Virus record (IMG/VR): IMGVR_UViG_2816332336_000005
Span: 41,176-105,175 of that record
DNA from: a virus
Lineage: Duplodnaviria > Caudoviricetes
Strand: one strand, 5' to 3'
Length of the DNA stretch: 64,000 nt
In this document: positions 2,458 to 64,000 of the stretch, one piece after another
How the letters are laid out: every line of letters starts with the position of its first letter
Numbering within the stretch: position 1 is the first letter of the stretch
Notes under the pieces: generated by a model
The model's input: the letters and a program-made list of their open reading frames with translations, nothing else
Database searches by the model: none
Told to the model about the DNA's origin: nothing
Position numbers and translations under genes: made by a program

Positions 2458-2474
2458 AGGAACGAGGGGACATC

Positions 2475-29416: not shown

Positions 29417-29869
29417 TTACGCAATAAAATAGCTCTTGACTTCGCTCGCCTTTATGTCCCTTGCGTACTGTTCTTGTCTCGCCTTATTGCGTATCTTAGC
29501 GTTGTTATCTACGAATTGCATTTCGTAAGGGCTGCGTCTTCTGCGCGAAGGTTTCCGGTAAGAGATTCCGTCCGTCCCTGTATCCTCTACTATTTTAAGC
29601 GAGGTCTCACCGCCCATACCGGAACCTCGTCGCTTGTGTTTTCCGAGTGTTCGGCGGGCGTATTGTGTCGCGGATAGAATCGGATATTCATGGTGGGTCA
29701 TTTTATGTTCGTCATCATCCGTGAGCTCTTCGTAGAGTATCGCGTCTGCTAGGCGTTCAAGCTCGCCGGAGTCTGGCCTATTATCCGTACGTAGGATTAC
29801 TTCATCTATCCACTCGCAAATAGCTGCTATTCGGTCGGTTCGTTCCATTTTTACCCATTCCATCATCAT
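29417..29869 (-). CDS. Conserved phage hypothetical protein
   Basis: LERLADAILYEEL...EYPILS motif; coupled to the sigma region-4 gene. Confidence 0.6.
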   Translation of the reverse strand: MMMEWVKMERTDRIAAICEWIDEVILRTDNRPDSGELERLADAILYEELTDDDEHKMTHHEYPILSATQYARRTLGKHKRRGSGMGGETSLKIVEDTGTDGISYRKPSRRRRSPYEMQFVDNNAKIRNKARQEQYARDIKASEVKSYFIA

Positions 29870-30234
29870 GCTGCCTCCTCACCGTAATTCCATATCTCAT
29901 AGACCTTCGCTATTCGTTCCAATCCATTTCTTACGCGTAATCCGGCTTTTTGAGGGCTGATGCCCATAGCCTTTCCCGTCTCAACAGTGTCTAACTCCCG
30001 TTCATAAACGTAATACAACGCCTCACGCTCCCGATCTGTCAGCCCCGCCCGTTCGATCGCCTCCGCCAGATCAATCAACACGTCACACGCCGCGTAGTCG
30101 CCCCGTTCGAACCGGCTGGCCCGTAAATGGTGGATGTCGCGTAGGATTGCGTGTACGCCGTCGCGGTCATTTAACGCATACCTTACGGAAAGATTGCGGT
30201 GTCCCTTTTCGATATCTACGGCACATGCGCCCAT
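29866..30234 (-). CDS. Sigma-70 region-4-like HTH regulator (possible late-gene activator)
   Basis: AGLTDREREALYYVY...GKAMGIS...GLERIA; last regulator before the packaging module. Confidence 0.75.
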   Translation of the reverse strand: MGACAVDIEKGHRNLSVRYALNDRDGVHAILRDIHHLRASRFERGDYAACDVLIDLAEAIERAGLTDREREALYYVYERELDTVETGKAMGISPQKAGLRVRNGLERIAKVYEIWNYGEEAA

Positions 30235-31451
30235 TAAGCCGCCTCCTTTATCGTATTCCCCTCGTAATACCCCGCTACAATCCGATCCGCCCATCCGAAG
30301 TCCCACGTACTATTACCGTCAATCTCCTCGCCCGCGCCGAGTGTCAGTTCGTTCCACCGGTAAGGTCCGTCGGCATACGTTCGGGCCCCGTCTCTGTATC
30401 CATCACAGTAACCGTTACCGTGCGAGAAGAAAAACGCCTCGTTACCCTTGCCGCTCCCGTGCCAACTCGGAATATGCGGGTACAAGTTCTCGCGCATCAG
30501 ACCATCATCCGTAAAGTCCACGAGCAGATCGTCCAGTTGTGCCGCCTCAGTTCGTTGCCCTTTCGCATCCAACCCAATGTCCGTCACCACCGCGAAATAG
30601 GACGGAGGCTGTCCGGCTAGGAACCGCGCATCGTGTTGCGTAATAGCGACGTCTCCCCCACGCTTAAAGCTCGATCTCCATCGTTTAGTCGCGGGTTCAA
30701 TTAACGGAGTATCAGGTGGCCCCTTCCGTAATATCAATATCTGTGTTTCTATTGTCGTCCCTACGTGTTGGAACGTCTCGCCCGGCAGGTGGATCGTGGC
30801 AATATGCCAGCAAGTTTCGTGCATGTATTTACGGATTTTTGCGGAATACTGTGCGTACGAAATACCCATTGGTAGGACGAATGCAATATAACCGCCGGGC
30901 TTTACGGCTTTGATAGCGAGTTCGAGAAATACGTTCTCGGACTTACCGCGGTATTTGCCCTTCGACTTGGATAGCGTCGTAAAATCGTCACGTTCCGTCT
31001 CCAACGTCAGCCCATACGGTGGGTTACCAATGACTATATCGTAGTAGTCGCGTCTCTCATGTAGCAACGCGTCCGCATTGATCACGTTCACATGCGGGTA
31101 AATGAGCTTCGTCACCTTCGCACTCGTTTCGTCGAGCTCGAGCGCTGTAATTTCGCAATCCGGCGGAATGTGTTCGAGAAATACACCGGAGCCGGCTGAC
31201 GGTTCGAGGACACGCATACTGCTCGTTAGTCCACCAGACAATCCCGCAATCGCCTCGACCACGAACCGCGCTACGTGCGTCGGCGTAAAGAAAGCACCAC
31301 CGGAGAATGCGTTCGGTAAGAGACCGCCTGCCGACGTGTAGTTTTCGCGTAGGAACTGGACGTCTTCCTCCGTTATCTCTTCGGGTGGCTTCGCTACTAT
31401 CGCCATTGAGCGTACGTTACCTTCCCAACGTTTGCGGTCGGCTTTTCCCAA
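30234..31451 (-). CDS. N6-adenine DNA methyltransferase (orphan)
   Basis: FFTP, VLEPSAGSG (motif I) and IGNPPY (motif IV). Confidence 0.88.
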   Translation of the reverse strand: MGKADRKRWEGNVRSMAIVAKPPEEITEEDVQFLRENYTSAGGLLPNAFSGGAFFTPTHVARFVVEAIAGLSGGLTSSMRVLEPSAGSGVFLEHIPPDCEITALELDETSAKVTKLIYPHVNVINADALLHERRDYYDIVIGNPPYGLTLETERDDFTTLSKSKGKYRGKSENVFLELAIKAVKPGGYIAFVLPMGISYAQYSAKIRKYMHETCWHIATIHLPGETFQHVGTTIETQILILRKGPPDTPLIEPATKRWRSSFKRGGDVAITQHDARFLAGQPPSYFAVVTDIGLDAKGQRTEAAQLDDLLVDFTDDGLMRENLYPHIPSWHGSGKGNEAFFFSHGNGYCDGYRDGARTYADGPYRWNELTLGAGEEIDGNSTWDFGWADRIVAGYYEGNTIKEAA

Positions 31452-41056: not shown

Positions 41057-41647
41057 TTACGCCACCTCCACGATTTTCGCCCCGTAAGGTACGTATTTCA
41101 ACGGCCGATCCGGTGCATTTACGACTACATTCCGATAATCAATTCCACGGTAATCTGCAATCGGTTTTAGTTTACGGAAGATCTCGATTGTGGCGAGTAC
41201 ATCGTTCATCGCACGATGGTGTCCGTTTAACTCGATGCCATATCGGGCACATACGTCTTTTAATGAAGCTGATTCCGTGGGCGCTACGAGCTTGGCGAGC
41301 GATCGAGTGCAGACGAACTTTTCAAGGAACATAACGCGTCCAGTAACAAACGATAGGTCGAATGGGGCATTGTGAGCAACGACCGTAGTATCAGCGAAAA
41401 ATTTACCTAACGCACTGGTAGCGAAGAAACTGTGAGTGCCACCGTGCAAATCTCTCTCTGTGATACCCGTCAGTTCCACGATAAAGTTTGGTAATTCGCG
41501 TCCCTCATCGAGCTGCACAAACGTCTGGAACCGTCCGTACTCCCGTTCTAAATCCGTTCTGATCGCGGCAACTTCGATAATTTGATCGTTCTCGTGGTCG
41601 AGTCCCGTCGTTTCCAGGTCAATGAACGTGTAGATTTCGCCCATCAA
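41057..41647 (-). CDS. DEDDh 3'-5' exonuclease (DnaQ-like)
   Basis: DLETTG, AHNAPFD and HRAMND motifs. Confidence 0.92.
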   Translation of the reverse strand: MMGEIYTFIDLETTGLDHENDQIIEVAAIRTDLEREYGRFQTFVQLDEGRELPNFIVELTGITERDLHGGTHSFFATSALGKFFADTTVVAHNAPFDLSFVTGRVMFLEKFVCTRSLAKLVAPTESASLKDVCARYGIELNGHHRAMNDVLATIEIFRKLKPIADYRGIDYRNVVVNAPDRPLKYVPYGAKIVEVA

Positions 41648-42642
41648 GCCGCCTCCTTATCGAGTATCGAGGTGATTTGTTCGAACGCGACGATATACGA
41701 TCGTTTCTTCCACTCAGGCATTCGCGACCTACGTACCATCGCCACTTGTCGTTCCAATTCATCGTATTCTTCGGCACTCAACGAAAGGGCGCACGCTGTC
41801 TTGAAGTTGTTAAACGTCCACTTTTCGAGGTCAAGCTTCGGTGGCCGACCCTCTTTCGATCGGACAACTATGTCCAGCAATTCGTCTCGAAGTCCGATCC
41901 GATCTTGATCCATAATAGTCACGTGGAACACTCGTAAATCAGGCTTGGCCGCGTATTCCTCATCCGTCAGTACCCAGTTAGCTTTAGACGCGTTCACATA
42001 CACGATAAGATAGTCGTCTAACGGCATTTCGGCTGTCCCGTACATTTCCGTATAGCCGACGCATTGAGCAACGTGCTTAGCTTCCGGCTCGGTCATCGAG
42101 TGCGGACTCGTCTTGGCTGCGGTTGATTGTTTCGACTTGATTTCGAGTCCCACGCGACGTCCGTCTTTGTATCGGAGGATTCCGTCAGGCTTTCCGTAGA
42201 GGGCGAAGCGTTGGCCGCCGTGATCCATTACGTGTAATTTCTGCGCGAAATCCTCCCACATTGGCAAGCCGTCCGGTGTACGTTCAACTGTGAACGGCGG
42301 CGCCTCCCCGAGAGTACGCTCGTAATGCTTCTCGATGAATAGTAGATCGCGTTGTATTACGTCACCGATTGCGGTACCGAGTCGTGTCCAGCGTCCTTGG
42401 TGCGGAGGTCGCGGTTGGATATCCTTCTTGGCTCCGCGTAGCTTCTCGTATAGCTCGCGTTTGTCAGCGTTAGCGCTAGACGGCGAAAAATACGGCTGGG
42501 CTCGAAAGTTGAAAAACGGACGGGTACGGAGGGCTTTCGCTTTCTGTTCGGAGATTAACGCGTCAAGTTCGTTGTCCCAAACCTCAGGCGCAGAGTGCCA
42601 TCGGTCAAGCATCGTTTTGAAATCATCGGCTAGTTGTGAGAT
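41644..42642 (-). CDS. PD-(D/E)XK (Cas4/RecB-like) phage exonuclease; probable ATC start
   Basis: FSPSS, GKPDGIL, LEIKS and Q...Y motifs. Confidence 0.8.
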   Translation of the reverse strand: MSQLADDFKTMLDRWHSAPEVWDNELDALISEQKAKALRTRPFFNFRAQPYFSPSSANADKRELYEKLRGAKKDIQPRPPHQGRWTRLGTAIGDVIQRDLLFIEKHYERTLGEAPPFTVERTPDGLPMWEDFAQKLHVMDHGGQRFALYGKPDGILRYKDGRRVGLEIKSKQSTAAKTSPHSMTEPEAKHVAQCVGYTEMYGTAEMPLDDYLIVYVNASKANWVLTDEEYAAKPDLRVFHVTIMDQDRIGLRDELLDIVVRSKEGRPPKLDLEKWTFNNFKTACALSLSAEEYDELERQVAMVRRSRMPEWKKRSYIVAFEQITSILDKEAA

Positions 42643-43139
42643 AGAGCATCGTCCTCCTTAGGAATATTATTTAGTTGTGCACAATCTCCAAATAATTCTG
42701 ATGCTTTTGTGTTATAAGCAATCGCTGCATCGACTGGAGACTCGTAGATACCTAGATATATCTTCTTTCCTAAATACATCACGCAGCTCTCCCACTTTTC
42801 AGCAGCTTTCGACCAAGAAACACCCCTAAATCCCGATTTGTTATTTCTGTTAAGATGCTGTCGGTTGGCCTGATTCTTAGTTTGGTCTACGATCCTTAAA
42901 TTTGACCTTCTATTATCTAACTTGTTGCCATTTATGTGATCAACAACTTTCCCTACTGGGGCCTTCACTATCTTACGATGCATTAATATAAAAGATTTGG
43001 CTCCCGTACCTTTGTGATGAATTGACCTTCCTGCATATCCGCTACTTACATAGTGCCACTTGTACCTGGATAGCGACTTGTAATCTAGGTCATCAACAAT
43101 CGCGACTTTTCCTTTCGTCAAAGTAATCTCTCGCGCCAA
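42630..43139 (-). CDS. HNH-AP2 homing endonuclease, free-standing
   Basis: VDHINGNKLDNRRSNLR HNH plus SGFRGVSW...YLG...AAIAYN AP2 domain; AT-richer than its neighbours. Confidence 0.92.
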   Translation of the reverse strand: MAREITLTKGKVAIVDDLDYKSLSRYKWHYVSSGYAGRSIHHKGTGAKSFILMHRKIVKAPVGKVVDHINGNKLDNRRSNLRIVDQTKNQANRQHLNRNNKSGFRGVSWSKAAEKWESCVMYLGKKIYLGIYESPVDAAIAYNTKASELFGDCAQLNNIPKEDDALSHN

Positions 43140-43143
43140 ATAA

Positions 43144-45321
43144 TCACTCCCCTCCTTCACACTCTTCGAACCACTTGTGTTCACTCACTTTTTTCATCCA
43201 ACGTTCCGGATTAATTTCCACGTCACAACGAACTGGACATCGTAGTTTTACAGCGTTCTCCATTGTTGCTCTGATATGACCTAACGCATCTTGTGTTATG
43301 TCTCTAGGGCAATCGAAGAGGAGCTCATCATGTACTTGCAGTAGGGTAAAGGTGTCATAATGTTTGAGAACTGGTATAAGGTCTACAATCGCCTTTTTGA
43401 GAATAGAACCCGCGCTCTCTTGGATCGGGAAGTTACCCGCCTGACGTTGTGCGCCAAATACTCGAAAACGCTCTTTCGATTTAATGTCCTCATGAAGTCG
43501 GCGTTTCCTTCCGAAAATCCCCGATACAAATCCGTCCTTCATAACCTTCCGATGCTGTTCGTCCATATATCGTTTAATGCCGGGATATCCACGAAAGTAA
43601 TCGTCAATGATCGTCTGTGCGTCAGCTTTTGTTACTTCAAGCGTATCTGCAAGCTTACCGGCGCCCATTCCGTAAACGATTCCGAAGTTAACAATTTTCG
43701 CTTGTTTCCTAAGTTTCTGGCACTCGTGACCCTCCGTATCTTTGTGTTGCTCTATATCGTCATAAGTGTATCGTCCTTTACTGATAAGTGCCGCCGTGGT
43801 CGAGTGTATATCTCGCCCTGTCTCGAATGCCTCGATAAGCACCGATTCATTTGCCATATGTGCTAACACGCGCAATTCGATCTGTGAATAATCGACTGAA
43901 ACAAGAATCCGGTCACTGTTCGTCGCGAGAAAAAGATGTCGTATTTCTGGCCGCTTAGCCGGGATTTGTTGCGTATTTGGATTGGCGCATGTGAATCGTC
44001 CAGTTGCGGCGCCCCAAGTATTGTGCCATGGGTGTATTTTCCCATCGGCTTTTACAGTATGAGGCAGTTTAGACGTGAACGCTTGTCTTAATTTCCCTAC
44101 CGCACGGTAATCGAGAATTAACGGAATGACCGGGTGGTTCTTTTTAATACGTTTTAAGGTACGAACTCCTGTAGACCCTTTATCGTTATCAGGCAACCGT
44201 AAATCCCCGTATAGTTTTTTTGATAGCTGTATTGGTGAGTTTAGATTGATTTTTTCACCTAGATATTCATGTATCTCCGCCTCTAACTGCAACTCCTCTT
44301 GCCCAAACTTCTCGTCCAGTTCCTTCGCCATATCTACATCAAACCGGATTCCACGTAAGTCAGACCTGATGAATTGTCGACACACAGGCATTTCGATGTC
44401 GAATACCAATCGCTCGATACGTTTGAGATCGTCGCGCTTCGAATACCAAGCACGAATCCACTCGTAAAGTTTTAGCGTCTTCTCCGTATCGCCTGCCGCG
44501 TATACCAAAGCGACATCTAACGGAATTTGATTGAACGGAGTTTTACCGAAAAGCTGATCGAAATTGTCTCCAGGCAGTTTTAACCAATCTGTACACAAGT
44601 CCTTTAAACGGTGGTTACGGTTTTCATCGAGTGCCATTGCCATTATCCTTGTGTCAGCATAGAGCGCGTCTACCAGGTCAAGCCCGTATTTCACATAGAA
44701 CCATTTGCAATCAAAGGGCGCGTTGTGCATGACAATCTTGGACTTCGGAAGTACCTCGATCATTCTATCGATTACGCATTCTTCAGGCAGTGCCTTCTCA
44801 ACGTGATTTAACGGAATATAGAAGCTTTCAGAGTGAGTTGAAACGCTGAATCCCGCCATATCACCGCGCCAAGGATCGAGAGCTGCACCATCTTCCCCGA
44901 ACGTTTCACAGTCAACAGCTATAATATCCGCAGATTCAATCGCCCGAATCATGTATTCTAACGAAGAAACGTTGTTTACTAGGTGGTAATTAGGCGGAGT
45001 ATTCCGTACCATCTCCGCCAATTTTTCACCGCGTTGTCGCTCGTTTAAATCTGCCCATATCCGGAGAGCTTCCGCCTTACTGAACCGTTTGGCAACGTCA
45101 GTCGGACGTCTGCCTATTACGCCCGACTCCATCGCTCGTTTAACTTCTAGTAAACGCCCTTGATCCGATGCACTATTACTCATTGCAAGTATACGCACCC
45201 ACGCCTGCTCAATCGTTTCTGTTGCGGCAGACTTACGTTTAGTCGCGTCTGCCACTCGTTGCTTAACCTCGGCGTCGGTTACGGTCGGTGAACGGAGTTT
45301 TAACGATAACTTTACGGTCAG
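43144..45321 (-). CDS. polA: Family A DNA polymerase with 3'-5' exonuclease; probable CTG start
   Basis: DCET, HNAPFD, DYSQIELR, KIVNFGIVYG and QVHDE motifs; AAAGGAGG RBS 8 nt before the in-frame CTG. Confidence 0.95.
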   Translation of the reverse strand: MTVKLSLKLRSPTVTDAEVKQRVADATKRKSAATETIEQAWVRILAMSNSASDQGRLLEVKRAMESGVIGRRPTDVAKRFSKAEALRIWADLNERQRGEKLAEMVRNTPPNYHLVNNVSSLEYMIRAIESADIIAVDCETFGEDGAALDPWRGDMAGFSVSTHSESFYIPLNHVEKALPEECVIDRMIEVLPKSKIVMHNAPFDCKWFYVKYGLDLVDALYADTRIMAMALDENRNHRLKDLCTDWLKLPGDNFDQLFGKTPFNQIPLDVALVYAAGDTEKTLKLYEWIRAWYSKRDDLKRIERLVFDIEMPVCRQFIRSDLRGIRFDVDMAKELDEKFGQEELQLEAEIHEYLGEKINLNSPIQLSKKLYGDLRLPDNDKGSTGVRTLKRIKKNHPVIPLILDYRAVGKLRQAFTSKLPHTVKADGKIHPWHNTWGAATGRFTCANPNTQQIPAKRPEIRHLFLATNSDRILVSVDYSQIELRVLAHMANESVLIEAFETGRDIHSTTAALISKGRYTYDDIEQHKDTEGHECQKLRKQAKIVNFGIVYGMGAGKLADTLEVTKADAQTIIDDYFRGYPGIKRYMDEQHRKVMKDGFVSGIFGRKRRLHEDIKSKERFRVFGAQRQAGNFPIQESAGSILKKAIVDLIPVLKHYDTFTLLQVHDELLFDCPRDITQDALGHIRATMENAVKLRCPVRCDVEINPERWMKKVSEHKWFEECEGGE

Positions 45322-48171: not shown

Positions 48172-48320
48172 TTTCGGACACCGGTAGCCCCGCGTCCGCG
48201 AGACGGCATGAACGGTCGTCTACTAGAGTGGCTTGCGCCTGCACCCCACAGGTTTACGACAGGCATACGGGGCGCCTCGCCTTCTTCGTCCACACCGCCT
48301 TGCCGACGCGGGAGGTCGGC
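48172..48320 (-). ncRNA. Candidate structured RNA (GC-rich, multi-stem intergenic region)
   Basis: Several complementary segments seen by eye; no credible ORF. Confidence 0.4.
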
Positions 48321-48328
48321 TTGTTCTC

Positions 48329-48853
48329 TTACGCGCTGTACACCGCAAGTGATTTCGCTACGTTCTTCTTTTCTAGCCGTAATGCCCGCAATTCTGCGTT
48401 CAATTGCGCGATATACAGGTCAATACCGTTTATAAGCACCTGACACGCGTTTATGGTCGCTGTACTTCGAGCCCGTTCACGCTTTAAGACAATGCGCGAC
48501 CTCTCAACCATCATTTCCGCAATTGTAATGCGGGTCTTTCTACTCAACGATGACTCCTTTCGTTCGAGCTTCCGCAACTCTTTGGTAAGATAAATACATA
48601 CTTTATCGCGTACATCCGGCGTCGGTTTAGTGTATTGCATGACCGTGACTACGAGGTCAGATGACTCGTGAAGGATGATTCCGATTTGACCACGGGCGTA
48701 CAACCGGCCCGGCTTGCCGTACTTATCTATCGTTGTGCTTATGAACATTGCTCGCGACAGTTGTTTCCGAATCCATTCGGCTGCTTTCGTTTGACTTACG
48801 TTGAATCGTTCGACTGCGCGTTTGATCGCGTGAGATGAAACGGTGAGATTCAT
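48329..48853 (-). CDS. Hypothetical protein (N-terminal SHAxxRxxER motif, C-terminal coiled coil)
   Basis: ORF translation. Confidence 0.6.
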   Translation of the reverse strand: MNLTVSSHAIKRAVERFNVSQTKAAEWIRKQLSRAMFISTTIDKYGKPGRLYARGQIGIILHESSDLVVTVMQYTKPTPDVRDKVCIYLTKELRKLERKESSLSRKTRITIAEMMVERSRIVLKRERARSTATINACQVLINGIDLYIAQLNAELRALRLEKKNVAKSLAVYSA

Positions 48854-48990
48854 CCGAGCCGCACCGCCTTTCCGAGCAAGGTAGATGAGGTGGATAAGGT
48901 AATCGGAATATAGTCCGCAGGATCATCATAGGGCGGGAAACCTCCGTTGTAGATATATTCGATATTTTCTGATTGCTTACGTTTAGGCAT
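48850..48990 (-). CDS. Small hypothetical protein
   Basis: GGAG RBS; ATGA overlap with the next gene. Confidence 0.45.
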   Translation of the reverse strand: MPKRKQSENIEYIYNGGFPPYDDPADYIPITLSTSSTLLGKAVRLG

Positions 48991-49185
48991 CGGGATCATC
49001 TCCGTTTCAAGAGTAATTATTTCGCTATGTTTAACAGAACGTTCTGTATAATGACAATTAAAGATGGTTAAGATTTTGTAAGGACCACTTGTTATAATTG
49101 AGAACAACTTAGAAGTACTCTATAATGACAATAAGAAAGAGATACGACGTGCATATGCTCGTACGTATTAATTTCTTAGGTTTTG

Positions 49186-49779
49186 TTAGACAATCCGTGG
49201 TAGGGTAGTTTGACAAAAAGACCTAAATCGTGTGATGGAACGTCTATGTGAATCGGGCTTACCTCCAAAGAGTTGCGCCAACAACTCCGAAAGAGCCGAA
49301 TCATTATAGAAACCATCAGACCAAGCGAGTAGGATCGCTTTCTTTCTCGAATCGCCCTTCGCCAAAAGGGCGATTTTTTCATTTATTGATTCTTTAATAA
49401 TCATTTCTTGCTCTGTCTCTCTAAAGACATCTGCTAACGTGTCAATTATCGTATTACCTTCGTCGTCAATTTCTCTTTCTAGTGGGATGTTATCAGTTCT
49501 ATTGTATTTCCTTCTCTTTATAAATTTTCTAAAACATCTTTCTAAATTAAATCTTGCTAATCTGCTAAAGGACCCTTTTTCTACATCGAAGTCTTTTATT
49601 GTCTGATCTAAGGCGTCTATCAACTCCTTTGTTAAGGAAGCTTCATTCTGTACCTTGTACCAGTTCCTATTAACGTAGTCGTTTATTATAGGAATGAAAT
49701 CCTTATAAACTAACTCTTTGGATTTTTCGCAGCCTTTTTGGGCGGCTATTGCGATTATTTCTATTTGGTTGTGGTTCAA
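49186..49779 (-). CDS. Phage-encoded sigma-70-like factor
   Basis: Region-2-like AAQKG...FDVEKGSF...; PLEREIDDEGNTIIDTLAD segment; C-terminal HTH-like region. Confidence 0.7.
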   Translation of the reverse strand: MNHNQIEIIAIAAQKGCEKSKELVYKDFIPIINDYVNRNWYKVQNEASLTKELIDALDQTIKDFDVEKGSFSRLARFNLERCFRKFIKRRKYNRTDNIPLEREIDDEGNTIIDTLADVFRETEQEMIIKESINEKIALLAKGDSRKKAILLAWSDGFYNDSALSELLAQLFGGKPDSHRRSITRFRSFCQTTLPRIV

Positions 49780-49810
49780 ATTCTACGCCTCCGTTTTAAG
49801 TAATTTTCCC

Positions 49811-49853
49811 TTATACTACTAATAGGGGAATGCTTGGTTTAAAATTGGGACAT
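49811..49853 (-). promoter_or_regulatory. Phage-specific bipartite motif, copy A (TGTCCCAATTT...CCCTATTA)
   Basis: Near-identical copies at 61981-62024 and 62138-62181. Confidence 0.65.
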
Positions 49854-49895
49854 CTTTCTAAGAAAAATTTAAAAAGTCGTAATCAGAGGTGCCAT

Positions 49896-50153
49896 ATGAC
49901 CTATAAAGTCGGAAGGTGCCGCTTGTTTGAACGGTTGAAAGTCGCTGATATGACGCAGGCTGATCTCGCGGAAAAAATTCAGATGAAACGCCAGCAGTTA
50001 TCTGACTACGCGAATAACCGAAATGTCATGTCGTTGTCTAACGCGAAATCTATTGCGCACGCCCTGGGCTGTCATATCGACGATCTGTACGAGTGGGTCG
50101 AGATACCTCCCTCGGAGCGAAACCGTAACAACAATCGGAGCCGAGAAGAGTAG
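49896..50153 (+). CDS. XRE-family repressor (candidate lysogeny repressor)
   Basis: MTQADLAEKIQMKRQQLSDYANN...IAHALGCHIDDLYEW; divergent from sigma, convergent with the receptor/peptide pair. Confidence 0.85.
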   Translation: MTYKVGRCRLFERLKVADMTQADLAEKIQMKRQQLSDYANNRNVMSLSNAKSIAHALGCHIDDLYEWVEIPPSERNRNNNRSREE

Positions 50154-50180
50154 CGGAAGTCTCCGCTCTCTCACCGACTT

Positions 50181-50202
50181 TTGTACCGAAGTTTCGGTAC
50201 AA
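50181..50202. promoter_or_regulatory. Perfect inverted repeat TTGTACCGAA-GT-TTCGGTACAA (operator or RNA hairpin)
   Basis: Read directly. Confidence 0.55.
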
Positions 50203-50348
50203 TCTTTTTTAGTGGTTGCCCAACTAGCTGGCTCCTATTGCTTTCTTGTTTTTATTGTATACCCAGTAAAGGCTAATTCTGCTACTAGGTTTATAATTTT
50301 GATTTTTCCCGCTTTTTGTCGAATTTAGGCGAAACAAAGGAAAAAACA

Positions 50349-50378
50349 CAAAAAAAAGACACCCTCTACAGGTGTCTT
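50349..50378 (-). terminator. Terminator after the propeptide gene
   Basis: AAGACACC-TGTAGAG-GGTGTCTT stem then a T run. Confidence 0.8.
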
Positions 50379-50394
50379 AAATAGGTTAGTAGTA

Positions 50395-50538
50395 CTACCA
50401 ACCTCCTCCAACTATTCTGGAAGTTACATATGCCACGCTCTCTTCTGATCCATTATCATAAGTAAACTGTTCTGCCTGTGTTGGCTGAGTAAATAAAACG
50501 GAGACAATTGCTACTAAAGTAACCATAAATGCTTTCAT
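50395..50538 (-). CDS. Secreted signalling propeptide, AimP-like (47 aa: MKAFMVTLVAIVSVLFTQPTQAEQFTYDNGSEESVAYVTSRIVGGGW)
   Basis: Not in ORF track; starts 1 nt after the receptor stop; signal peptide ending TQA, acidic linker, Gly-rich C-terminus ending GGGW. Confidence 0.85.
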   Translation of the reverse strand: MKAFMVTLVAIVSVLFTQPTQAEQFTYDNGSEESVAYVTSRIVGGGW

Positions 50539-50539
50539 T

Positions 50540-51865
50540 CTAATTCGCCCCTTTTAAAATATTCAAATATCTATGTTCAACGTCCTCTCCTAAAATAGCC
50601 TTATGTTCGAAGAGGATCGCGGACATTTTTTGATATACGGAAATATCTCTGAACTCTAGTGCTGTTTTAATGACCTCGAGAACATCGTTGAATGCTTCTT
50701 TATACTGCTCCATAGCTAGATAATACTGTAATCTAACAACTTGAAAATTATAAAACTGACTCTTATTGTACTTATCCTTCTTTAATGCGACTGACTCAAA
50801 GATCGCGTTATATTTCTCTAAAAAAACACCAATTCTCTCTAGCTGTCCGTTTGAAAGTAATATCTTCAGCGCGTATGGAGCTACCGTAATAATTTCATGT
50901 TCGCGATTCTTATCTACAACCAGTCGGATAAACTCACTTACCGCTTCTAGCTTACCTTCCATTACTTCGATTAACTTTTCATTCGACAACGCCGCCCAAC
51001 GGTAGTAATCACCTAGGTTGTGGCATTCCCGGAGAAGTTCTGCCGCCTTTCTGAGTTCACCCATTCCTATTAAACTTGCTGCTTGGTAAAGAAGCGACTC
51101 CCCTAGATGTTTGATATCTTTGGCGTCCTTTGCCTCTTTATAGTACGCATCTGCTACAACAGAAAGTTCCTCCCACTCTTTGGTAACATTATACCAAGTA
51201 ACGACACGGTAGTATCCATCTAACTGTAGATTTACTGTTTCTGCAACACCATTTTTTTGAATGGGATATTCTGTCGGCAGGTCGTTCAATACTGCTCGTA
51301 ATTTATGTAATGCTTCTACACCCTTCTTACGCATATCTCGATCGCGTTCAATCAAGAAAATTCGATGGCAGCAAATCGCATACCTTTCTGATATTTTCTT
51401 TTCGATGTTTGTAATTGCGTAATATACAGACGCGGCCTCTGCTAGAAAGCCATAACCGAAAAGTGTCTCTGCAAAAGCTAAGGCGGTGGACATATCCTTT
51501 ATATCTATTGTTTCCAAGAATAACTCGACTACTTTACTGCAATGACTGACACCTTGCTTACAGTGAGAGCATGCCTTAATAAAATCTGTTACTTTGGGAA
51601 GAGAAACTTTGGACGAGTCCTTGAAAAGCTCTCCATAAATCATTCCATAAAAAAAATCGGCGTCTAGTCTGAACACGTGTGTCAATAAATCTACCTGGTC
51701 CATCGTAATCGCTTGCTTGTTCTTCATAATATAAGAAAGCGATTGGGGAGAGATATACAACAATTTAGCTAGGTCTCTTTGACTAAGATTATGTGAATGC
51801 ATTTGGATTAGTATTTCTTCCCTTAATTTAAGACGATAATAAGTCAAGTCACTGGTGTCGATCAT
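50540..51865 (-). CDS. RRNPP-family peptide receptor (AimR/AloR-like; XRE HTH plus TPR-like helical domain)
   Basis: N-terminal HTH (LSQRDLAKLLYISPQSLSYIMK), ~350-aa all-helical remainder, immediately followed by a propeptide gene. Confidence 0.85.
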   Translation of the reverse strand: MIDTSDLTYYRLKLREEILIQMHSHNLSQRDLAKLLYISPQSLSYIMKNKQAITMDQVDLLTHVFRLDADFFYGMIYGELFKDSSKVSLPKVTDFIKACSHCKQGVSHCSKVVELFLETIDIKDMSTALAFAETLFGYGFLAEAASVYYAITNIEKKISERYAICCHRIFLIERDRDMRKKGVEALHKLRAVLNDLPTEYPIQKNGVAETVNLQLDGYYRVVTWYNVTKEWEELSVVADAYYKEAKDAKDIKHLGESLLYQAASLIGMGELRKAAELLRECHNLGDYYRWAALSNEKLIEVMEGKLEAVSEFIRLVVDKNREHEIITVAPYALKILLSNGQLERIGVFLEKYNAIFESVALKKDKYNKSQFYNFQVVRLQYYLAMEQYKEAFNDVLEVIKTALEFRDISVYQKMSAILFEHKAILGEDVEHRYLNILKGAN

Positions 51866-51907
51866 TGGTTATCACCTGCCATCAATTATTCGAAATAGTA
51901 TAATCAA

Positions 51908-51967
51908 AGTATAATTCACATTATGTGTATTGTCAACACATTATGTGAATGAAGAATACATTATGTG
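51908..51967 (-). promoter_or_regulatory. Sigma-A promoter of the receptor gene overlapped by three palindromic operators
   Basis: TTGACA-N17-TATACT (51936 to 51908); CACATTATGTG at 51917 and 51937, TACATTATGTG at 51957. Confidence 0.8.
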
Positions 51968-52029
51968 ATGTATTATATTTAAATATGTGTTATGATGAAT
52001 ATAAATTTAGTAAAGGAGAGATATTCCAG

Positions 52030-52248
52030 ATGAAGAAGGAAATTGAACTACAAGGAAATACATTTAAAGAGTGCTTAGATATTATGAAAGCAGAGAAGAA
52101 AATAAAAACTTATAAGGAACTAGCCGAGCTGTCAGGCGTGAAGGAAACCACTCTCAGCATGCGCCTTACGCGAGGAAATATGAACCTGAGTGACGTTGTT
52201 ACCCTACTCGAAGCTCTTGACTATGAAATCATATTTCGTAAAAAATAA
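52030..52248 (+). CDS. Small XRE HTH protein divergent from the receptor
   Basis: TYKELAELSGVKETTLSMRLTRG HTH; AAAGGAG RBS. Confidence 0.8.
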   Translation: MKKEIELQGNTFKECLDIMKAEKKIKTYKELAELSGVKETTLSMRLTRGNMNLSDVVTLLEALDYEIIFRKK

Positions 52249-53222
52249 TTATTACCTTTACAAAAATTTATCTTAATAAAACTTTTTTTATCTGTAAACA
52301 CATTTTTTAACACATGATTTAATTCCGCCTTATTTTTTATTTCGTTTGGGTCCTTATAACGAATCGGATACCCCACGACGTTAACCGTCATATATCCCGA
52401 CAGCCCTCCGACGACCGCCCGTTTCATCTTCTGGCCCGCCTCGTCATGATCCGCCATCACCCCGATAATCTCTATCGGGCTCTTCCGCAAAGCCTCCGCC
52501 TTCTCTTCGCTGAACACCGATCCACCTAACGCTACCGCCGGCACTCCCGCACTCCACAGATACATCGCGTCAATCTCGGATTCCACAAGCACTACCCCTG
52601 TGATTCTCTGCTTATAAACGATATCCAGCCCGTACACCATTTCACGTATAGGCCGCCCTCCCTTTGCGTACCAGAACGTCTTTTCGTCAACTTTTCGATA
52701 TTTAACGTTTCCGAGCGTGCCGTCCGCGTTAAACCAAGGAATAGTAACCGCGTTAATCCTCGGATCATAGCCCGTTCGGAACAGATGTTGTATCTCACCG
52801 GCTATACCTCGCGAAGCTAAATACGGATGATCCCTACCTAGGTACGGTTCGTCTAACGTCTTAACTCGCGGCTGATCTATACGTAATCGCCCCGACAAGT
52901 CCAACGTAAGAGCCTCGGGGTCAACCATTCCCTCCCCGTACTTCCACCGTAAGTAATCCTGCGTCTCCTCTTCCGTTTCCTCCCGCAAAAACGCCAGCAA
53001 CTTCACGATCCCACCACGTTGATAATCCGGGTCCTTCGCGCCTAAATCCGACCAGTAGCCGGCTTTTGCTATGTTACGTGGGTCGTTACTGTCACGTAAC
53101 CAAACGTAGAAGGACGGCGACCGATCCCAACGGAAGGGACTGGCCGCAAGCAGCTTATCATCCGTCCACGTTGCGGCTGTCCACGAAAACTGTTCGAGTT
53201 CGGCCCGAATATCTATCTGCAT
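52221..53222 (-). CDS. DNA primase (TOPRIM)
   Basis: SPFRWDRSPSF, YLASRGI, LVESEIDAM, DHDEAG and KDPNE motifs. Confidence 0.9.
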   Translation of the reverse strand: MQIDIRAELEQFSWTAATWTDDKLLAASPFRWDRSPSFYVWLRDSNDPRNIAKAGYWSDLGAKDPDYQRGGIVKLLAFLREETEEETQDYLRWKYGEGMVDPEALTLDLSGRLRIDQPRVKTLDEPYLGRDHPYLASRGIAGEIQHLFRTGYDPRINAVTIPWFNADGTLGNVKYRKVDEKTFWYAKGGRPIREMVYGLDIVYKQRITGVVLVESEIDAMYLWSAGVPAVALGGSVFSEEKAEALRKSPIEIIGVMADHDEAGQKMKRAVVGGLSGYMTVNVVGYPIRYKDPNEIKNKAELNHVLKNVFTDKKSFIKINFCKGNNYFLRNMIS

Positions 53223-53235
53223 CTATACGTCCTCC

Positions 53236-54582
53236 TTAAAAAGGCAGCTTAAACTGATCTGCGGCCGCCTCTCCGCTTGGTAGTTCGCGCACAAGCCCGT
53301 AGTTCGGCATGTAAACGACTTCTAACGTGACACCTTCGCCTCCATTGCGCCCTTTGTTTAGCTGTATAACCCCGATCCCATCCAGCGTATCTATTCCGAT
53401 AGTTAGTGCCGAGTCTTCGAGAAACGACTTACTCTTTTTCAGCTCGGCGCGTGTGGGCGGTCTAAGTTCGCGATTACCCTCGTCGTCCTTGTCATCCCGG
53501 ACCTCTTCCGCCTGTGTAATGCCGTGGATAACGCACTGATATCGACCTGCCAACGCCCTGATTTTGTTCGAAGTCTCGGTTGCGTCTCCTCCGGTTGTCT
53601 TAGACCGGTTCGCCTCGTAGGTCATGTAATAGTACGGGTCAATCACAACCACGTCCGCCTTTGTTGCCACGATGTCAGCTTCTAGGTCGCGAACTCTACG
53701 GGATGAGAAGTCGATATCGTCTACCGCACGAACAACGATGGTGCCTGGTATAATTTCGTTGATCTCCGTTAAAAATTGTTCGAACCCCTGTTCAAACTCT
53801 TCCGTTAATTTCCCATTAAGCAGCGCTCTATTTTCGAAACCTACCTCGTAATCCACACCGTCAATGTTTGCGTTAACAGCTCCTTGGCGCGCTGAGATAG
53901 ATGAATAGGCACGGGCCATCCATTCGAATCGCGACATTTCCATCGCCCACACAAGTACGTTTGCTCCCTGGGCCGCAGCCTCTATCGCTTCTTCCATCGT
54001 AAAGATTGATTTACCTCGACCACTGCGCCCGTACCACGTGTAGACATTGCCGGAAAGGTACCCGCCTATCTCTTTATTAATCGTAGGAAATTTCGACTTC
54101 CATATCTTAAACGACGTTCCTTCCTTACGTTTTCGATATTCGTCTAAGAACGTTACCGTATCACGTTTGATATCCGTTCCTACCTTTGATCGTGTAGCCG
54201 TTTCCGCCCTGATCCGTTCCGTTTGCTCGATGAGCCACGCGGCAAACTCTTCCGTCGATAGTTCCGTAAACTTATCGCCTACGTCCCGTCCGGTTAAGAA
54301 CGAATGTAGCCGTAACTTGCCCGCATTGTTCCTTATCTTACGCGCCATGTATTCGAAGGAATCGCCCACTTCCGGCATGTACGTGAAGCCCGCACACTCA
54401 GCAACGACAGTTCTATAATCCGGGGCCTGCCCTCCGTTGCTATCCGCGTAGGCCTTTATAAATCGGTAGGCCTTCCGTTCGGCTTCCGTAGGGAAATGCT
54501 CGGCCCGAATATCGTATCGAAGAAATGCGCCCGTATCGTTTGTGTCAATCACTTTCGATAGAAACGATTCACCGTATGCCAA
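53236..54582 (-). CDS. DnaB-like replicative helicase
   Basis: GRSGRGKS Walker A, AMEMS, VVIDP and KGRNG motifs. Confidence 0.92.
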   Translation of the reverse strand: MAYGESFLSKVIDTNDTGAFLRYDIRAEHFPTEAERKAYRFIKAYADSNGGQAPDYRTVVAECAGFTYMPEVGDSFEYMARKIRNNAGKLRLHSFLTGRDVGDKFTELSTEEFAAWLIEQTERIRAETATRSKVGTDIKRDTVTFLDEYRKRKEGTSFKIWKSKFPTINKEIGGYLSGNVYTWYGRSGRGKSIFTMEEAIEAAAQGANVLVWAMEMSRFEWMARAYSSISARQGAVNANIDGVDYEVGFENRALLNGKLTEEFEQGFEQFLTEINEIIPGTIVVRAVDDIDFSSRRVRDLEADIVATKADVVVIDPYYYMTYEANRSKTTGGDATETSNKIRALAGRYQCVIHGITQAEEVRDDKDDEGNRELRPPTRAELKKSKSFLEDSALTIGIDTLDGIGVIQLNKGRNGGEGVTLEVVYMPNYGLVRELPSGEAAADQFKLPF

Positions 54583-54688
54583 ATCCGCTCACCTCCGTTT
54601 ATGAAAACGTTTTATAATCAAATGGTATCACGACCGCTTCTAACAACTGTACGCATAAATATTTACAATTAATTCCGTTTATTGGATT

Positions 54689-54874
54689 TTATAAACTTAA
54701 ATTTTGATGCCATTCCTCTAGTTTGTTCCTTAACCGATCCGCCTTCTTGTCCGACAGCTCCCCGAACTCATTCCGGAACTCTATTAACAGCGCGTAATCC
54801 AGAAAAGCCCCTGCGCAGTAATCTCGTTCCTCATCGGTCATACGCGACCTCATACGGAATAATCTCGCAATCAT
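54689..54874 (-). CDS. Hypothetical protein
   Basis: Coupled to the loader gene. Confidence 0.5.
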   Translation of the reverse strand: MIARLFRMRSRMTDEERDYCAGAFLDYALLIEFRNEFGELSDKKADRLRNKLEEWHQNLSL

Positions 54875-55647
54875 TTTCGCATCCCCCTCTTAGACTCGCC
54901 ATTAAACCCTAGCTGCAAGCATTGTTCTCGTACGCGATCCGCTAACCTCTTGTCAAAAACATCCGCCAACTCTTCCATCGGTATATTCGAGGTGTAAACG
55001 GTGGGCATCCTATTCGTCACCCGATGATTAATAATCGTATGCAGGTCGCCTCGAAAAGCCTCGGTCGCGTCCCGTACTCCGATATCGTCCAACACAACGA
55101 AGGGTACATTCATCACGTGCTTCATCCATTCGTAGTATTTACCGGATGCGGGCTCGGCAATGTGGTCGGGTACTTTCGGTCTATTAAACTGATTAAATAG
55201 CGTCTGCCACTCGTTCACGTCAAGGAAGAAGACGGGCCGTTGTAACGGCTGGAGACCTCGTTGGATCGAGCCGATGAAATGCGTTATTAGGTACGCGTTC
55301 GCAATTGCGGCGGCTGTCGTTGTCTTGCCTGTGCCGGGTTCATACGAGAATAGGTACAGCGACTTGATACGTTCAGAAGCTTCTGAAACCTCGCTAAATT
55401 GGCGTATAAACGTCGCTATATAACGGTCTATATTCGTATAGATACCGCGCTGTTCGACTCGTGGCGGTGCCGTCTCGACGGTTATATGGGCATAGTCACT
55501 CGGGATGCAGGCGGCGGCTACTCGGCCCCCTTTTCCGCTGGCTCCGTGCATCGCGATGAAGGACGGGCACAGGCGAGTGCAGGCGGTCGGGTCGGCAGCG
55601 TGACGGCAGGGTTCACGTAGAATGCAGTGTGGCGCGTTCGTGCTCAA
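54871..55647 (-). CDS. DnaC/IstB-like helicase loader ATPase
   Basis: PGTGKTT, VLDDIG, TSN and GESKR motifs; N-terminal Cys cluster. Confidence 0.9.
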   Translation of the reverse strand: MSTNAPHCILREPCRHAADPTACTRLCPSFIAMHGASGKGGRVAAACIPSDYAHITVETAPPRVEQRGIYTNIDRYIATFIRQFSEVSEASERIKSLYLFSYEPGTGKTTTAAAIANAYLITHFIGSIQRGLQPLQRPVFFLDVNEWQTLFNQFNRPKVPDHIAEPASGKYYEWMKHVMNVPFVVLDDIGVRDATEAFRGDLHTIINHRVTNRMPTVYTSNIPMEELADVFDKRLADRVREQCLQLGFNGESKRGMRK

Positions 55648-61980: not shown

Positions 61981-62181
61981 CCTTTACTCTTAATAGGGCA
62001 ATGGAGTTATTAAAATTGGGACATAAACCTTAAAAAATTTTTTCTTTAACAAATGTCTATAATTACGAGACTACAAAAACTCAAAAATTTGGTACACGTT
62101 TAATAAGTTAATTTCACTCATCTAGCATTTATTACACCCTTTACTATTAATAGGGGTATGAGGTAGTCGAAATTGGTACGT
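61981..62181 (-). promoter_or_regulatory. Phage-specific bipartite motif, copies B (61981-62024) and C (62138-62181)
   Basis: ATGTCCCAATTTT..CCCTATTAAGAGTAAAGG and ACGTACCAATTTC..CCCTATTAATAGTAAAGG. Confidence 0.65.
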
Positions 62182-62271: not shown

Positions 62272-62856
62272 TTAGCTATCCCATTTAATACCGGGTGCAT
62301 TCGTAACTTTTGCCCCTGTCGATATTATTGTCTCGTCAGGTGTTGCGACTGTAATTATCAAATCATAATAATCGTAGACCTCTCCATAGTAGTCCTTTTC
62401 TGGGGCTTTCCCGCCTGCTGCCGATCCAAGAGTGCGCACAAAGTTATTCCCGATACGTTTTGCAGTCTCCTTATTGACAGCGTAACCAACGATTACCGCA
62501 AGACTAACTCGATCCTTATCTACGATAATCGCCGCGTCCTTAACGAAGTCTCTTTTCTTCACGTCGTCGGTCACTCTTTTTATAATCGCGTCCTCAATTT
62601 GTATCTTAGGCTGTTCTTCTTCTGTTTTCGTCTGCTCCTCATTTTGTACTTTGCTAGTTGTCGCCTGCTGTGACGAAAGGCCTGTTGGTTTGTCTAAAGT
62701 AAAAGCACTTATGAAACCTATGAATGATAATAACAGAATCAAGGTACCCCTCTTCCTAGTCAAAACAAAATTCCCTTTTGATAGCCATTTTGGGTTAATA
62801 ATTATTATCAAGGAAACAAAAAATAATAGCACAGAAGCTAGTCCTAAGAAAGCCAT
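62272..62856 (-). CDS. Membrane-anchored extracytoplasmic protein (possible superinfection exclusion)
   Basis: Two N-terminal TM helices, Q/E/T linker, soluble domain; next to the integrase. Confidence 0.6.
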   Translation of the reverse strand: MAFLGLASVLLFFVSLIIIINPKWLSKGNFVLTRKRGTLILLLSFIGFISAFTLDKPTGLSSQQATTSKVQNEEQTKTEEEQPKIQIEDAIIKRVTDDVKKRDFVKDAAIIVDKDRVSLAVIVGYAVNKETAKRIGNNFVRTLGSAAGGKAPEKDYYGEVYDYYDLIITVATPDETIISTGAKVTNAPGIKWDS

Positions 62857-62962
62857 GCAGTCCCTCCTCTCATAGTCAATCCTCTCTCTCTTTAGTTTAC
62901 AGTGACAACGTGTTAAGTACAATTCTAAAATTTCTGAACAAAAAAACGCCAGCCCCGAAGGA

Positions 62963-64000
62963 CTAGCGTAATATTTTCCTTTCTTTATTGAGTTTTCCTA
63001 TGACGTCATTTAAAGGTGAATACTTCTCGTGTTGATTTTTAATTGAGGTCTTGGATAGATGTGTATACCTCATCACCATTCGCAGGTCTGAGTGTCCCAG
63101 TATCATTTGTAGATGACGTAAGTCTCCACCGTTTTCCAAAAACATTGTCGCGGCCGTATGCCGAAACAGGTGCGGGTGAATACGTATCGGAATATTGGCT
63201 TGCTTTGCATATTCCTTTAATCGATGCCGAAATTGTCCATCTCTCAAAGGTTCGCCGTAGTTAGCAAGAAAAACATAATCCGTGTCAAAGTCTTCGTTTT
63301 CTTTTATTACGTCCTGTATTAATCGAAGAGTATGTCTATTTATAGGTACAGAGCGTGACTTTCGATTCTTTGACTCTTCGGCACGTACCGTGATCATTCC
63401 TATTACAAAATCAATGTCCATCTTTCTTAACGACAGTACCTCGTTAATACGAAAGAACCCGTCAATCAAGACATTCATAATCACATAGTCGCGGAACCCA
63501 CTATATCTACGTTGATTCGGCATGGCTAGTAGGGTCTGTAGTTGTTCAACGCTCATTATTTTTATCTCGTTCTCATCTTCCTCGACCTTTTTAATAGATT
63601 CAAAAGGGTTGGAAGAAATGTAGCTCTCTGTTGTAAGGTGCTTAAAAAAGGTTCGCATCGTTTTCAGTCGCGTATTCACAGTCGTAGGAGTAAGCCCTAC
63701 CGTCTGCTCTGCTTCTGTTTTAAACTTATGCCCTTCGAATCGTATTTTCTCTTTGAGCATCCAAACGATGTAACCCCGTATCATTTCTGTATCCACATTT
63801 CTAACATCTCTACCTAACCCGCGTAAATCCATGTATTCTACAAAAAATCCGTAGTTCTCTTTATAGCTTGCGAGTGTTCGATCCTTTCTTCCCTCCGCAA
63901 CCTTAGCGTGATAAAATCTCTCGAACAACGCGTCTAACGCGTATTCAGAAGTTACCGAAAATCTTTCCGTTCGTTGACGCTTTCCTTTTCGTCTATCCAA
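62963..64000 (-). CDS. int: Tyrosine recombinase/integrase of the large prophage (start at or beyond the window edge)
   Basis: RINEVL, KNRKSRSVP, HPHLFRHT and LGHSDLRMVMRY motifs. Confidence 0.92.
   Translation of the reverse strand: MDRRKGKRQRTERFSVTSEYALDALFERFYHAKVAEGRKDRTLASYKENYGFFVEYMDLRGLGRDVRNVDTEMIRGYIVWMLKEKIRFEGHKFKTEAEQTVGLTPTTVNTRLKTMRTFFKHLTTESYISSNPFESIKKVEEDENEIKIMSVEQLQTLLAMPNQRRYSGFRDYVIMNVLIDGFFRINEVLSLRKMDIDFVIGMITVRAEESKNRKSRSVPINRHTLRLIQDVIKENEDFDTDYVFLANYGEPLRDGQFRHRLKEYAKQANIPIRIHPHLFRHTAATMFLENGGDLRHLQMILGHSDLRMVMRYTHLSKTSIKNQHEKYSPLNDVIGKLNKERKILR

Follow-up and report, generated by a model that had tools for sequence, protein, structure and literature searches.

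Does a temperate Brevibacillus prophage read a secreted peptide to choose between lysis and lysogeny, and through which receptor would it do so? The question is raised by four adjacent genes in a 64,000-nucleotide stretch of viral DNA (the window; positions 41176–105175 of the 105-kb IMG/VR provirus record IMGVR_UViG_2816332336_000005), which encode a 72-residue helix-turn-helix (HTH) protein, a 441-residue receptor combining an HTH with tetratricopeptide repeats (TPRs), a 47-residue propeptide and an 85-residue XRE-type protein. A first-pass annotation, made from the letters alone, had proposed an arbitrium-like system at this cassette. That proposal stands in part: the phage carries an RRNPP-type pair with a convergent small XRE gene, as in most arbitrium systems, but the receptor is not AimR. 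Judged by sequence, the 47-residue open reading frame (ORF) and the receptor form a true quorum-sensing pair of the RRNPP type, from the AloR/AloP family. The best explanation for the cassette as a whole, to which we give about an even chance, is that this AloR-type pair steers lysis–lysogeny through the XRE gene and an operon headed by a sigma-factor gene.

The receptor and its propeptide

The receptor gene lies on the minus strand (50540–51865), with AGGTGA 7 nt ahead of its ATG. As the first-pass annotation had described, its product has the features of an HTH-TPR receptor, and ORF, profile and structure searches together point to a peptide receptor of the AloR family. Pfam, which found HTH families only, places HTH_3 at residues 25–72 (E = 8.6e-07). 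The AlphaFold2 (AF2) model (pLDDT 93.4, pTM 0.88) is all-helical, with a TPR superhelix over residues ~80–440 after the HTH. In a structure search with this model, the top match was a generic TPR protein (4r7s_A, Z 18.0), and the best-ranked RRNPP structure was NprR (4gpk_A, Z 17.3, 295 residues aligned, root-mean-square deviation (rmsd) 8.4). Rap proteins scored Z 15.0–16.4 and PlcR Z 13.9, and AimR (5zvv_A) came below NprR and Rap, at rank 35 (Z 12.9, rmsd 17.7). Because a generic TPR protein scores as high as NprR, the fold match does not discriminate between subfamilies. A Foldseek search against the Protein Data Bank (PDB), which returned mostly LGN/TPR proteins, with a phage Rap at rank 14 and PlcR at rank 46, was likewise non-discriminating. 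The model nevertheless has RRNPP architecture, and in its size and its HTH with about nine TPRs the predicted protein resembles NprR of the NprR–NprX system of the Bacillus cereus group, although PDB sequence searches with the receptor returned HTH and generic TPR proteins only and no RRNPP receptor.

Sequence profiles were more informative about the subfamily. The NCBIfam AimR model NF038310 (lysogeny_AimR) did not match the 441-residue receptor at E ≤ 1. A word-based search found just two relatives, one 92% identical and one 75% identical (named Brevibacillus laterosporus), and an exhaustive search found 57 cluster representatives at E ≤ 1e-3, with 21 at ≤1e-10 and five at ≤1e-30, mostly 415–470 residues long and matching end to end. 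Among 29 aligned family members, HTH_26 was detected in 18, HTH_3 in 17 and TPR_12 in five, and the family alignment contained no conserved stretch of 7–10 columns. When plasmids were searched with tblastn, the receptor matched Brevibacillus and Paenibacillus regulators. One of these, on a plasmid of P. polymyxa ATCC 842, is a 457-residue receptor followed by a 43-residue ORF ending GYIGGA, and precisely this peptide is listed as AloP11 (Voichek et al. 2020, PMC7425212), so that the plasmid receptor (L016:2483–3856) is AloR11. Comparing the 29-member profile with AloR11 by hhalign gave a probability of 100 and E = 4.2e-40 over 402 columns; BLASTP of the receptor itself against AloR11 found 27% identity over the first 160 residues only (E = 2e-12). 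Given the AloR11 profile match and the lack of a match to NF038310, the comparison with AimR and AloR profiles that the first-pass annotation had called for comes out on the side of AloR: the receptor reads as a divergent member of that family, not as AimR. The host is a member of the Paenibacillaceae, as for Alo systems; the nearest named homologue is from B. laterosporus, and related loci occur in Brevibacillus genomes and plasmids. Brevibacillus proteins, those of B. laterosporus included, had already been counted as AloR-like in the profile search reported by Voichek et al. (2020, PMC7425212). No match to the receptor was found by tblastn in 50,697 phage records at E ≤ 1e-3, no match to the cassette by blastn in the phage collection and no relative of the window receptor in a scan of genome contigs.

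The propeptide gene (50395–50538, minus strand; MKAFMVTLVAIVSVLFTQPTQA/EQFTYDNGSEESVAYVTSRIVGGGW) begins with an ATG 1 nt past the receptor stop codon, an arrangement in which the two genes are translationally coupled. Its product has lysine as its second residue, a hydrophobic core of 14 residues, a TQA/E site, with cleavage of the signal peptide likely after TQA, and an acidic, variable pro-region. It ends YVTSRIVGGGW in the window and YVTS(R/K)IVGGGW across orthologues. The first-pass annotation had recognized this gene as a secreted propeptide, and the loci of related genomes bear this out. Of six genus-level genomes reached from B. dissolubilis, five have homologues at E ≤ 1e-15. In four related Brevibacillus genomes (G003–G006), all 12 receptor homologues at this threshold have a signal-peptide ORF that overlaps or just follows their 3′ end. 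Eleven of the 12 propeptides end (Y/F/V)G(E/G)GW, that is, GxGW (SVGEGW three times; TYGEGW, SFGEGW and IVGGGW twice each; IYGEGW and GYGEGW once each), and the remaining one ends NVGEHG. Two plasmid homologues are also paired, with propeptides ending SVGEGW and SFGEGW.

We considered that the 47-residue ORF might have arisen by chance or might encode a small secreted or membrane protein, the neighbouring HTH-TPR protein being an orphan regulator. Pfam and NCBIfam searches returned no family match for the ORF, and in B. dissolubilis (G001) just two of the eight best receptor places have a propeptide ORF (ending FGMNW and FGPGW); the others are orphan, among them P0003, the closest non-orthologous relative of the window receptor. 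Orphan receptors have also been reported at some Alo loci (Voichek 2020, PMC7425212). However, pairing that recurs at 12 of 12 homologous loci is more than chance would give, with the GxGW end in 11 of them, and the translational coupling of the two genes also argues against an unrelated ORF. A further point comes from the orthologue in G005 (L040; receptor 91% identical), where the propeptide is 72% identical overall and the end YVTSKIVGGGW is kept; because the end is retained while the pro-region diverges, the constraint on the propeptide sits at its C terminus. The orphan-regulator explanation is therefore very improbable. A palindrome over the propeptide stop codon (50383–50404) was discarded as a candidate element, since L040 does not retain it.

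We predict that cleavage after the conserved R/K releases IVGGGW as the mature peptide. The length of this peptide is taken by analogy with AloP11, for which the mass spectrometry fragments stop six residues before the C-terminal end in the supplementary table of Voichek et al. (2020, PMC7425212). The glycine-rich C-terminal code is shared with the AloP peptides, which end YIGGA or HGGA, whereas the Brevibacillus clade typically has a C-terminal tryptophan and the GxGW motif. The C-terminal code is new, in line with the new specificity that had been proposed at first pass.

Candidate control sites on either side of the pair

On which promoters might such a pair act? The same gene arrangement occurs in three IMG/VR relatives (receptor 98, 91 and 98% identical) and in two genomes (91 and 90%). 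We compared the window with two orthologous variants, L003 and L040, and with L039, a prophage locus of G006 that bears another receptor allele; the arguments from non-coding conservation rest on four to five related prophages. The receptor–propeptide operon ends in an intrinsic terminator (50378–50356, minus strand; nine pairs, then T8), which had been noticed at first pass and whose hairpin and T-run are also present in L003, L040 and L039. Convergent to the operon is the XRE gene (49896–50153, plus strand), whose product matches HTH_3 (E = 4.9e-11) and HTH_26 (E = 2.9e-10) in Pfam and is 85–86% identical in L003, L039 and L040. It is the repressor-like gene of the first-pass annotation, and we regard it as a candidate small repressor and AimC analogue. 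The gap between the two convergent units, put at ~190 nt in that annotation, is there but measures 241 nt from stop to stop and 153 nt between both terminators. It contains the 22-bp inverted repeat that had been singled out. The repeat is indeed perfect (50181–50202; 9-bp arms, 4-nt loop), but we rejected it as an operator. It starts 28 nt past the XRE stop codon and is followed on the plus strand by TCTTTTTT, so that it is the intrinsic terminator of the XRE gene itself; the terminator scan also calls it on the plus strand, and it travels with the XRE gene in all four variants compared.

Just past the operon's terminator lies a conserved intergenic block that ends in TACAAT (50244–50355, minus strand). 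The hexamer, which the first-pass annotation had picked out as a minus-strand −10 box, stands at 50259–50254 and is kept in all three orthologous variants (window, L003 and L040). Across these three, 90 of 115 columns (78%) of the block are invariant, compared with 14 of 41 (34%) in the leader beyond it (50203–50243). The block is not alignable in L039, the bearer of the other receptor allele. Because conservation stops after TACAAT, the block fits a regulated promoter followed by an unconstrained leader. We propose with modest confidence that TACAAT marks a candidate receptor-dependent promoter for an aimX-like transcript running antisense through the XRE gene; the antisense transcript itself is a conjecture. 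No convincing minus-strand terminator was found before 49779 in the terminator scan, which returned only a 5-pair hairpin inside the XRE gene.

The first gene beyond the cassette (49186–49779, minus strand) encodes a 197-residue phage sigma-70-family factor. In a structure search with its AF2 model (pLDDT 80.5), the first 17 rows were all sigma factors, with matches to RpoS region 2 (Z 11.5, rmsd 2.5 over 90 residues), pro-sigma-K (Z 10.8) and the SigB holoenzyme (Z 12.6 over 160 residues); NCBIfam gave a weak sigma match (E = 8.8e-06). The phage has a second sigma-factor gene at 29866–30306 (phrog_3512, E = 4e-21), directly upstream of the packaging genes, and may thus run a two-step sigma cascade.

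Between the XRE and sigma-factor genes we identified a bipartite promoter/operator motif, CCAATTT-N15-CCTATTAGTAGTATA (49812–49848, minus strand). A second copy lies upstream of the first early gene (61956), at 61983–62019, and a third lies in tandem with it in the early control region, at 62140–62176, both on the minus strand. Searched as CCAATTT-N(10–22)-CCTATTA, the motif has three copies in 64 kb against 0.01 expected, and none of 100 shuffles reached three. The spacing is 15 nt in every copy, each copy is on the lytic strand, and the early control region and the front of the sigma-factor gene are the only places in the window where the motif occurs. L039 and L040 both retain it beside the XRE gene, and the early region of the G005 prophage has it as well. 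The −35-like part is unlike TTGACA, and the motif may be an operator plus a −10 element or a promoter for another sigma factor. Because the motif next to the XRE gene recurs only at early promoters, the position of the gene and the shared motif suggest that XRE is the best candidate for the master repressor of this prophage. Among the other prophage ORFs scanned, no other repressor-type HTH (HTH_3/CI class) was found, the product of 26872–27321 matching HTH_36, and the only HTH genes found opposite the lytic strand are the two of the cassette.

The other of these two genes, the small HTH gene (52030–52248, plus strand), is divergent from the receptor gene and overlaps the 3′ end of the primase gene convergently. 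Its 72-residue product matches HTH_26 (E = 9e-4), HTH_3 (E = 1.7e-3) and Phage_CI_repr (E = 2.9e-3) in Pfam, all missing the curated cut-offs, and is 88% identical in L003, 93% in L040 and 58% in L039. A consensus scan places a candidate receptor promoter, TTGACA-17-TATACT (11 of 12 matches), at 51908–51936 on the minus strand. Three operator-like boxes, (C)ACATTATGTG, lie over it (51917–51967) with a start-to-start spacing of exactly 20 bp. Two are full 11-bp near-palindromes, CACAT-N-ATGTG; one box is inside the promoter spacer and one abuts the −35 element. L003 and L040 have the boxes at the same positions with respect to the promoter, and exact copies occur nowhere else in the window. In L039, CTCATAATGAG/CCCATTATGAG boxes stand in place of the CACATAATGTG boxes, with changes at symmetrical positions.

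These boxes bear on a different view of a real quorum-sensing pair, in which its target would be the divergent promoter region only. The receptor would bind the CACATAATGTG boxes and repress itself and/or the 72-residue HTH gene, the peptide would relieve that repression in a PrgX/TraA-like manner, and any influence on the phage cycle would run through the small HTH protein rather than through an aimX-like transcript past the propeptide gene. The exact spacing of three boxes that cover the −35 and −10 elements of the receptor promoter speaks for this view, as do the symmetrical change of the boxes with the receptor allele (CACATAATGTG compared with CTCATAATGAG) and the presence of the small HTH gene in all four variants. 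However, the small HTH protein of L039 differs too, so that the altered boxes do not point to the receptor in particular; for the characterised relatives AloR13 and AimR, the target is the gene that lies downstream of the peptide gene; and the conserved TACAAT block past the terminator would be left unexplained. We consider this restriction to the divergent promoter possible, though doubtful. A separate sequence in the 5′ leader of the receptor gene, TATTTCGAATA (window 51887–51897), is also found at L007 4967–4977, in the leader of the closest non-orthologous relative, the orphan B. dissolubilis receptor (27% identical). The two leaders may share an autoregulatory site, or the sequence may have survived from a common ancestor; being common to just one non-orthologous locus, it was too little to retain as a regulatory box.

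The slot of the cassette in the prophage

Does the cassette belong to the phage's own regulation or is it a passenger? The element that carries it is a temperate Brevibacillus (laterosporus-group) prophage, which extends as a single unit from ~5.8 kb to 64 kb of the window. Its gene order, every gene on the minus strand, runs from an integrase (62963–64000) through a DnaC-like loader, a DnaB-like helicase and a primase (52221–55647), then DNA polymerase, ribonucleotide reductase, thymidylate synthase and the second sigma factor, to terminase, portal and endolysin (5810–6568). The four-gene cassette sits between the primase gene and the 197-residue sigma-factor gene; the early control region is ~10 kb away and the integrase ~11 kb. 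Its GC content is low, 0.388 at 50001–52000 compared with 0.44–0.53 in neighbouring windows.

Related prophages show what varies at this slot. In L039 the order is the same (primase, small HTH on the minus strand, receptor, propeptide, XRE on the minus strand, sigma factor), but identity to the window is uneven: 89% for the primase, 58% for the small HTH protein, 27% for the receptor (462 residues), 85% for XRE and 63% for the sigma factor. The L039 propeptide (8492–8650) is unrelated; its 52 residues contain NVGEHG twice, internally and at the C terminus, so that each precursor molecule could yield two signal peptides. Likeness between L039 and the window resumes exactly at the XRE terminator. 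In L003, likeness to the window ends just past the XRE start codon and a different sigma-gene allele follows (30% identity over 87 residues). Comparison of these loci indicates that the receptor–peptide pair can be swapped for a distant allele while the position and gene order of the cassette stay. Since the allele is exchanged at a fixed slot, as with arbitrium codes, we argue that the pair serves the regulation of the phage itself.

Alternatively, the cassette might be accessory cargo (a moron) from the host's AloR repertoire, regulating host behaviour or superinfection immunity by lysogen density, and neutral for the lysis–lysogeny decision. Its host-like GC content is in keeping with cargo, and Paenibacillus phage Tripp, which shares the backbone (terminase 64% identical), has the same junction without the cassette: its sigma-gene homologue (29% identical, E = 3e-21) lies 52 nt after the primase gene, and a classical integrase–repressor–cro module is located elsewhere. 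Many paralogues with related xGEGW peptides exist on host chromosomes and plasmids, and host-directed roles have been proposed for non-arbitrium phage quorum-sensing systems in the catalogue of Bernard 2023 (PMC10075063). However, there is no candidate host-directed effector (spo0E, abrB or rap) beside the cassette; exchange of the receptor–peptide allele leaves the slot, both flanking HTH genes and the sigma gene in place; and the promoter motif next to XRE is common to the prophage's early promoters. A cargo role is thus unlikely.

The integrase lies with a gene for a 216-residue membrane protein in a stretch (62272–64000) whose GC content, 0.395, is host-like and whose orientation is that of the lytic genes. 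A lysogeny module co-oriented with lytic genes is unusual. The record stops exactly at the integrase start codon, and the true end of the prophage is therefore out of view. The left part of the window (1368–4394) is the right end of a second, separate prophage, whose lytic genes run leftwards in the record, with minus-strand genes of its own in the 17.5 kb upstream. It includes a divergent Cro-like XRE gene (1368–1694, minus strand) and, on the plus strand, genes for a two-HTH XRE repressor (1769–2398), an ImmA-like metalloprotease (2475–3107) and a tyrosine integrase (3204–4394). Because this integrase/ImmA/XRE module is separate, the 105-kb ‘provirus’ is two prophages in tandem, and we rejected the module (1769–4394) as the switch of the cassette prophage. 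Three RNA-seq runs with the same species label had no reads on 48300–53300 at 90% likeness, so that the strain sequenced for RNA is without the cassette stretch. A DNA run (X1) contains a variant with ~6% differences over 48850–53298 (254 other letters).

The proposed circuit and known peptide systems

How might the parts work together? In the circuit that we favour, the propeptide would be exported, trimmed to about IVGGGW and re-imported, and would bind the TPR groove and turn the receptor off. The peptide-free receptor would activate the −35-less promoter (TACAAT) just past its own terminator, and the resulting transcript would run antisense through the XRE gene into the sigma-factor operon, counteracting or bypassing XRE. 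XRE would be the master repressor, acting at the bipartite motif in front of the sigma-factor gene and of the early operon. Accumulated IVGGGW would switch the receptor off and let XRE hold the early and sigma promoters shut, such that low peptide would favour lytic development and high peptide lysogeny. The 72-residue HTH protein and the three CACATAATGTG boxes may form an extra local switch that sets the amount of receptor and peptide. The sign of this response would be that of Alo13, where AloR13 activates the gene downstream of aloP13 and 10 nM–5 µM peptide switches the activation off (Voichek 2020, PMC7425212).

Several observations weigh against this circuit. The CACATAATGTG boxes are confined to the promoter of the receptor gene itself and are absent from the downstream block (50244–50355), so that the receptor cannot use this motif at both places. 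The distance of the cassette from the early region and the integrase, together with its host-like GC content, could mean cargo. The variants compared are close kin (receptor 90–98% identical), which weakens the arguments from non-coding conservation. The gene after XRE is a sigma factor and not a small Cro-like HTH gene as in extended arbitrium systems. Between the propeptide and XRE genes we found no conserved small ORF with a ribosome-binding site, and an AimX-like ORF was rejected on this ground; a 40–50-residue ORF antisense to the XRE 3′ end is open in four variants, without a Shine–Dalgarno sequence. Finally, AimX of phi106 is reported to be a 29-residue protein antirepressor whose transcript alone has little effect (Kabel 2025, 10.1101/2025.11.23.689978), which also calls into question the premise of the first-pass annotation that aimX is known to act as an antisense RNA in many arbitrium clades.

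The closest parallel in gene order is the extended arbitrium system of Bacillus phages (aimR–aimP–aimX–aimC–aimL). About 80% of arbitrium systems are described as having a small HTH gene, aimC, on the opposite strand right after aimP, and AimC as repressing a co-directional operon with replication genes (Kabel 2025, 10.1101/2025.11.23.689978). The cassette likewise has a receptor and then a propeptide, followed by a small single-HTH gene on the opposite strand (85 residues for XRE, 80–140 in arbitrium) and then a co-directional operon holding replication genes; peptide codes differ among related phages in both, and a lysis–lysogeny role is, for the cassette, a proposal. It differs in that its receptor is not AimR, its host is Brevibacillus, the position of aimL is taken by the 197-residue sigma factor and no AimX ORF is convincing. 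In addition, the cassette has a divergent small HTH gene and three operator-like boxes upstream of the receptor, and it lies inside the replication region, not at the integrase. The same configuration, a quorum-sensing system, a divergent c1 repressor and a co-directional operon, is found among the phage RRNPP systems of Bernard 2023 (PMC10075063), which are computational catalogue entries, and is taken there, with reference to Stokar-Avihail 2019, as a mark of operon control by phage quorum sensing. With Alo systems (for example Alo11 and Alo13 of P. polymyxa ATCC 842) the cassette shares a full-length homologous receptor with an N-terminal HTH and divergent TPRs, and a setting of many paralogues per genome. 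Unlike them, it is prophage-borne, and what follows its receptor–peptide pair is a convergent XRE gene and a sigma-factor gene instead of spo0E.

A broader reading goes one step further: an arbitrium-like circuit may have arisen independently outside Bacillus from an AloR-type receptor, with a sigma operon as its output, cross-talk with the host and swapped codes. As part of this reading, IVGGGW, one residue from the xGEGW pheromones of host chromosomes and plasmids, could let phage and host listen to each other. We put this forward tentatively and think it less likely than not. To our knowledge, arbitrium is so far AimR-specific and confined to Bacillus phages. If the cassette functions as we propose, the same circuit design (receptor, peptide, opposite-strand small repressor and lytic operon) has been reached with a different receptor family in another genus, and a phage sigma factor can be the output of such a circuit. 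AloR-family systems in prophages are already listed in surveys: AloR is among six known families with viral members according to the preprint of Bernard et al. (2021), and the Paenibacillaceae ‘cluster 8’ occurs in chromosomes, plasmids and phages according to Bernard 2023 (PMC10075063). We found no paper describing this locus, the IVGGGW code, the XRE/sigma arrangement or the shared motif, the peptide lists of the surveys being uncompared.

The cassette offers a cheap and concrete test set, consisting of one hexapeptide, one receptor and three short promoter regions. IVGGGW and NVGEHG are a natural pair of orthogonal alleles in otherwise similar prophages, and the nearness of the phage code to the host xGEGW pheromones makes phage–host cross-talk directly testable.

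Elsewhere in the window prophage, an HNH endonuclease gene (42630–43184) lies between the DNA polymerase gene (43144–45255) and a gene for a separate polymerase exonuclease subunit (41057–41647), and the same stretch holds a gene of a CRISPR/Cas-associated-type nuclease family (41644–42612, phrog_1706). The related prophage of G005 (L041 9049–11442) is preceded by spoIVB, spo0A and a lipoprotein gene and starts ~1.2 kb downstream of spo0A; unlike the window prophage, it has no integrase at this end.

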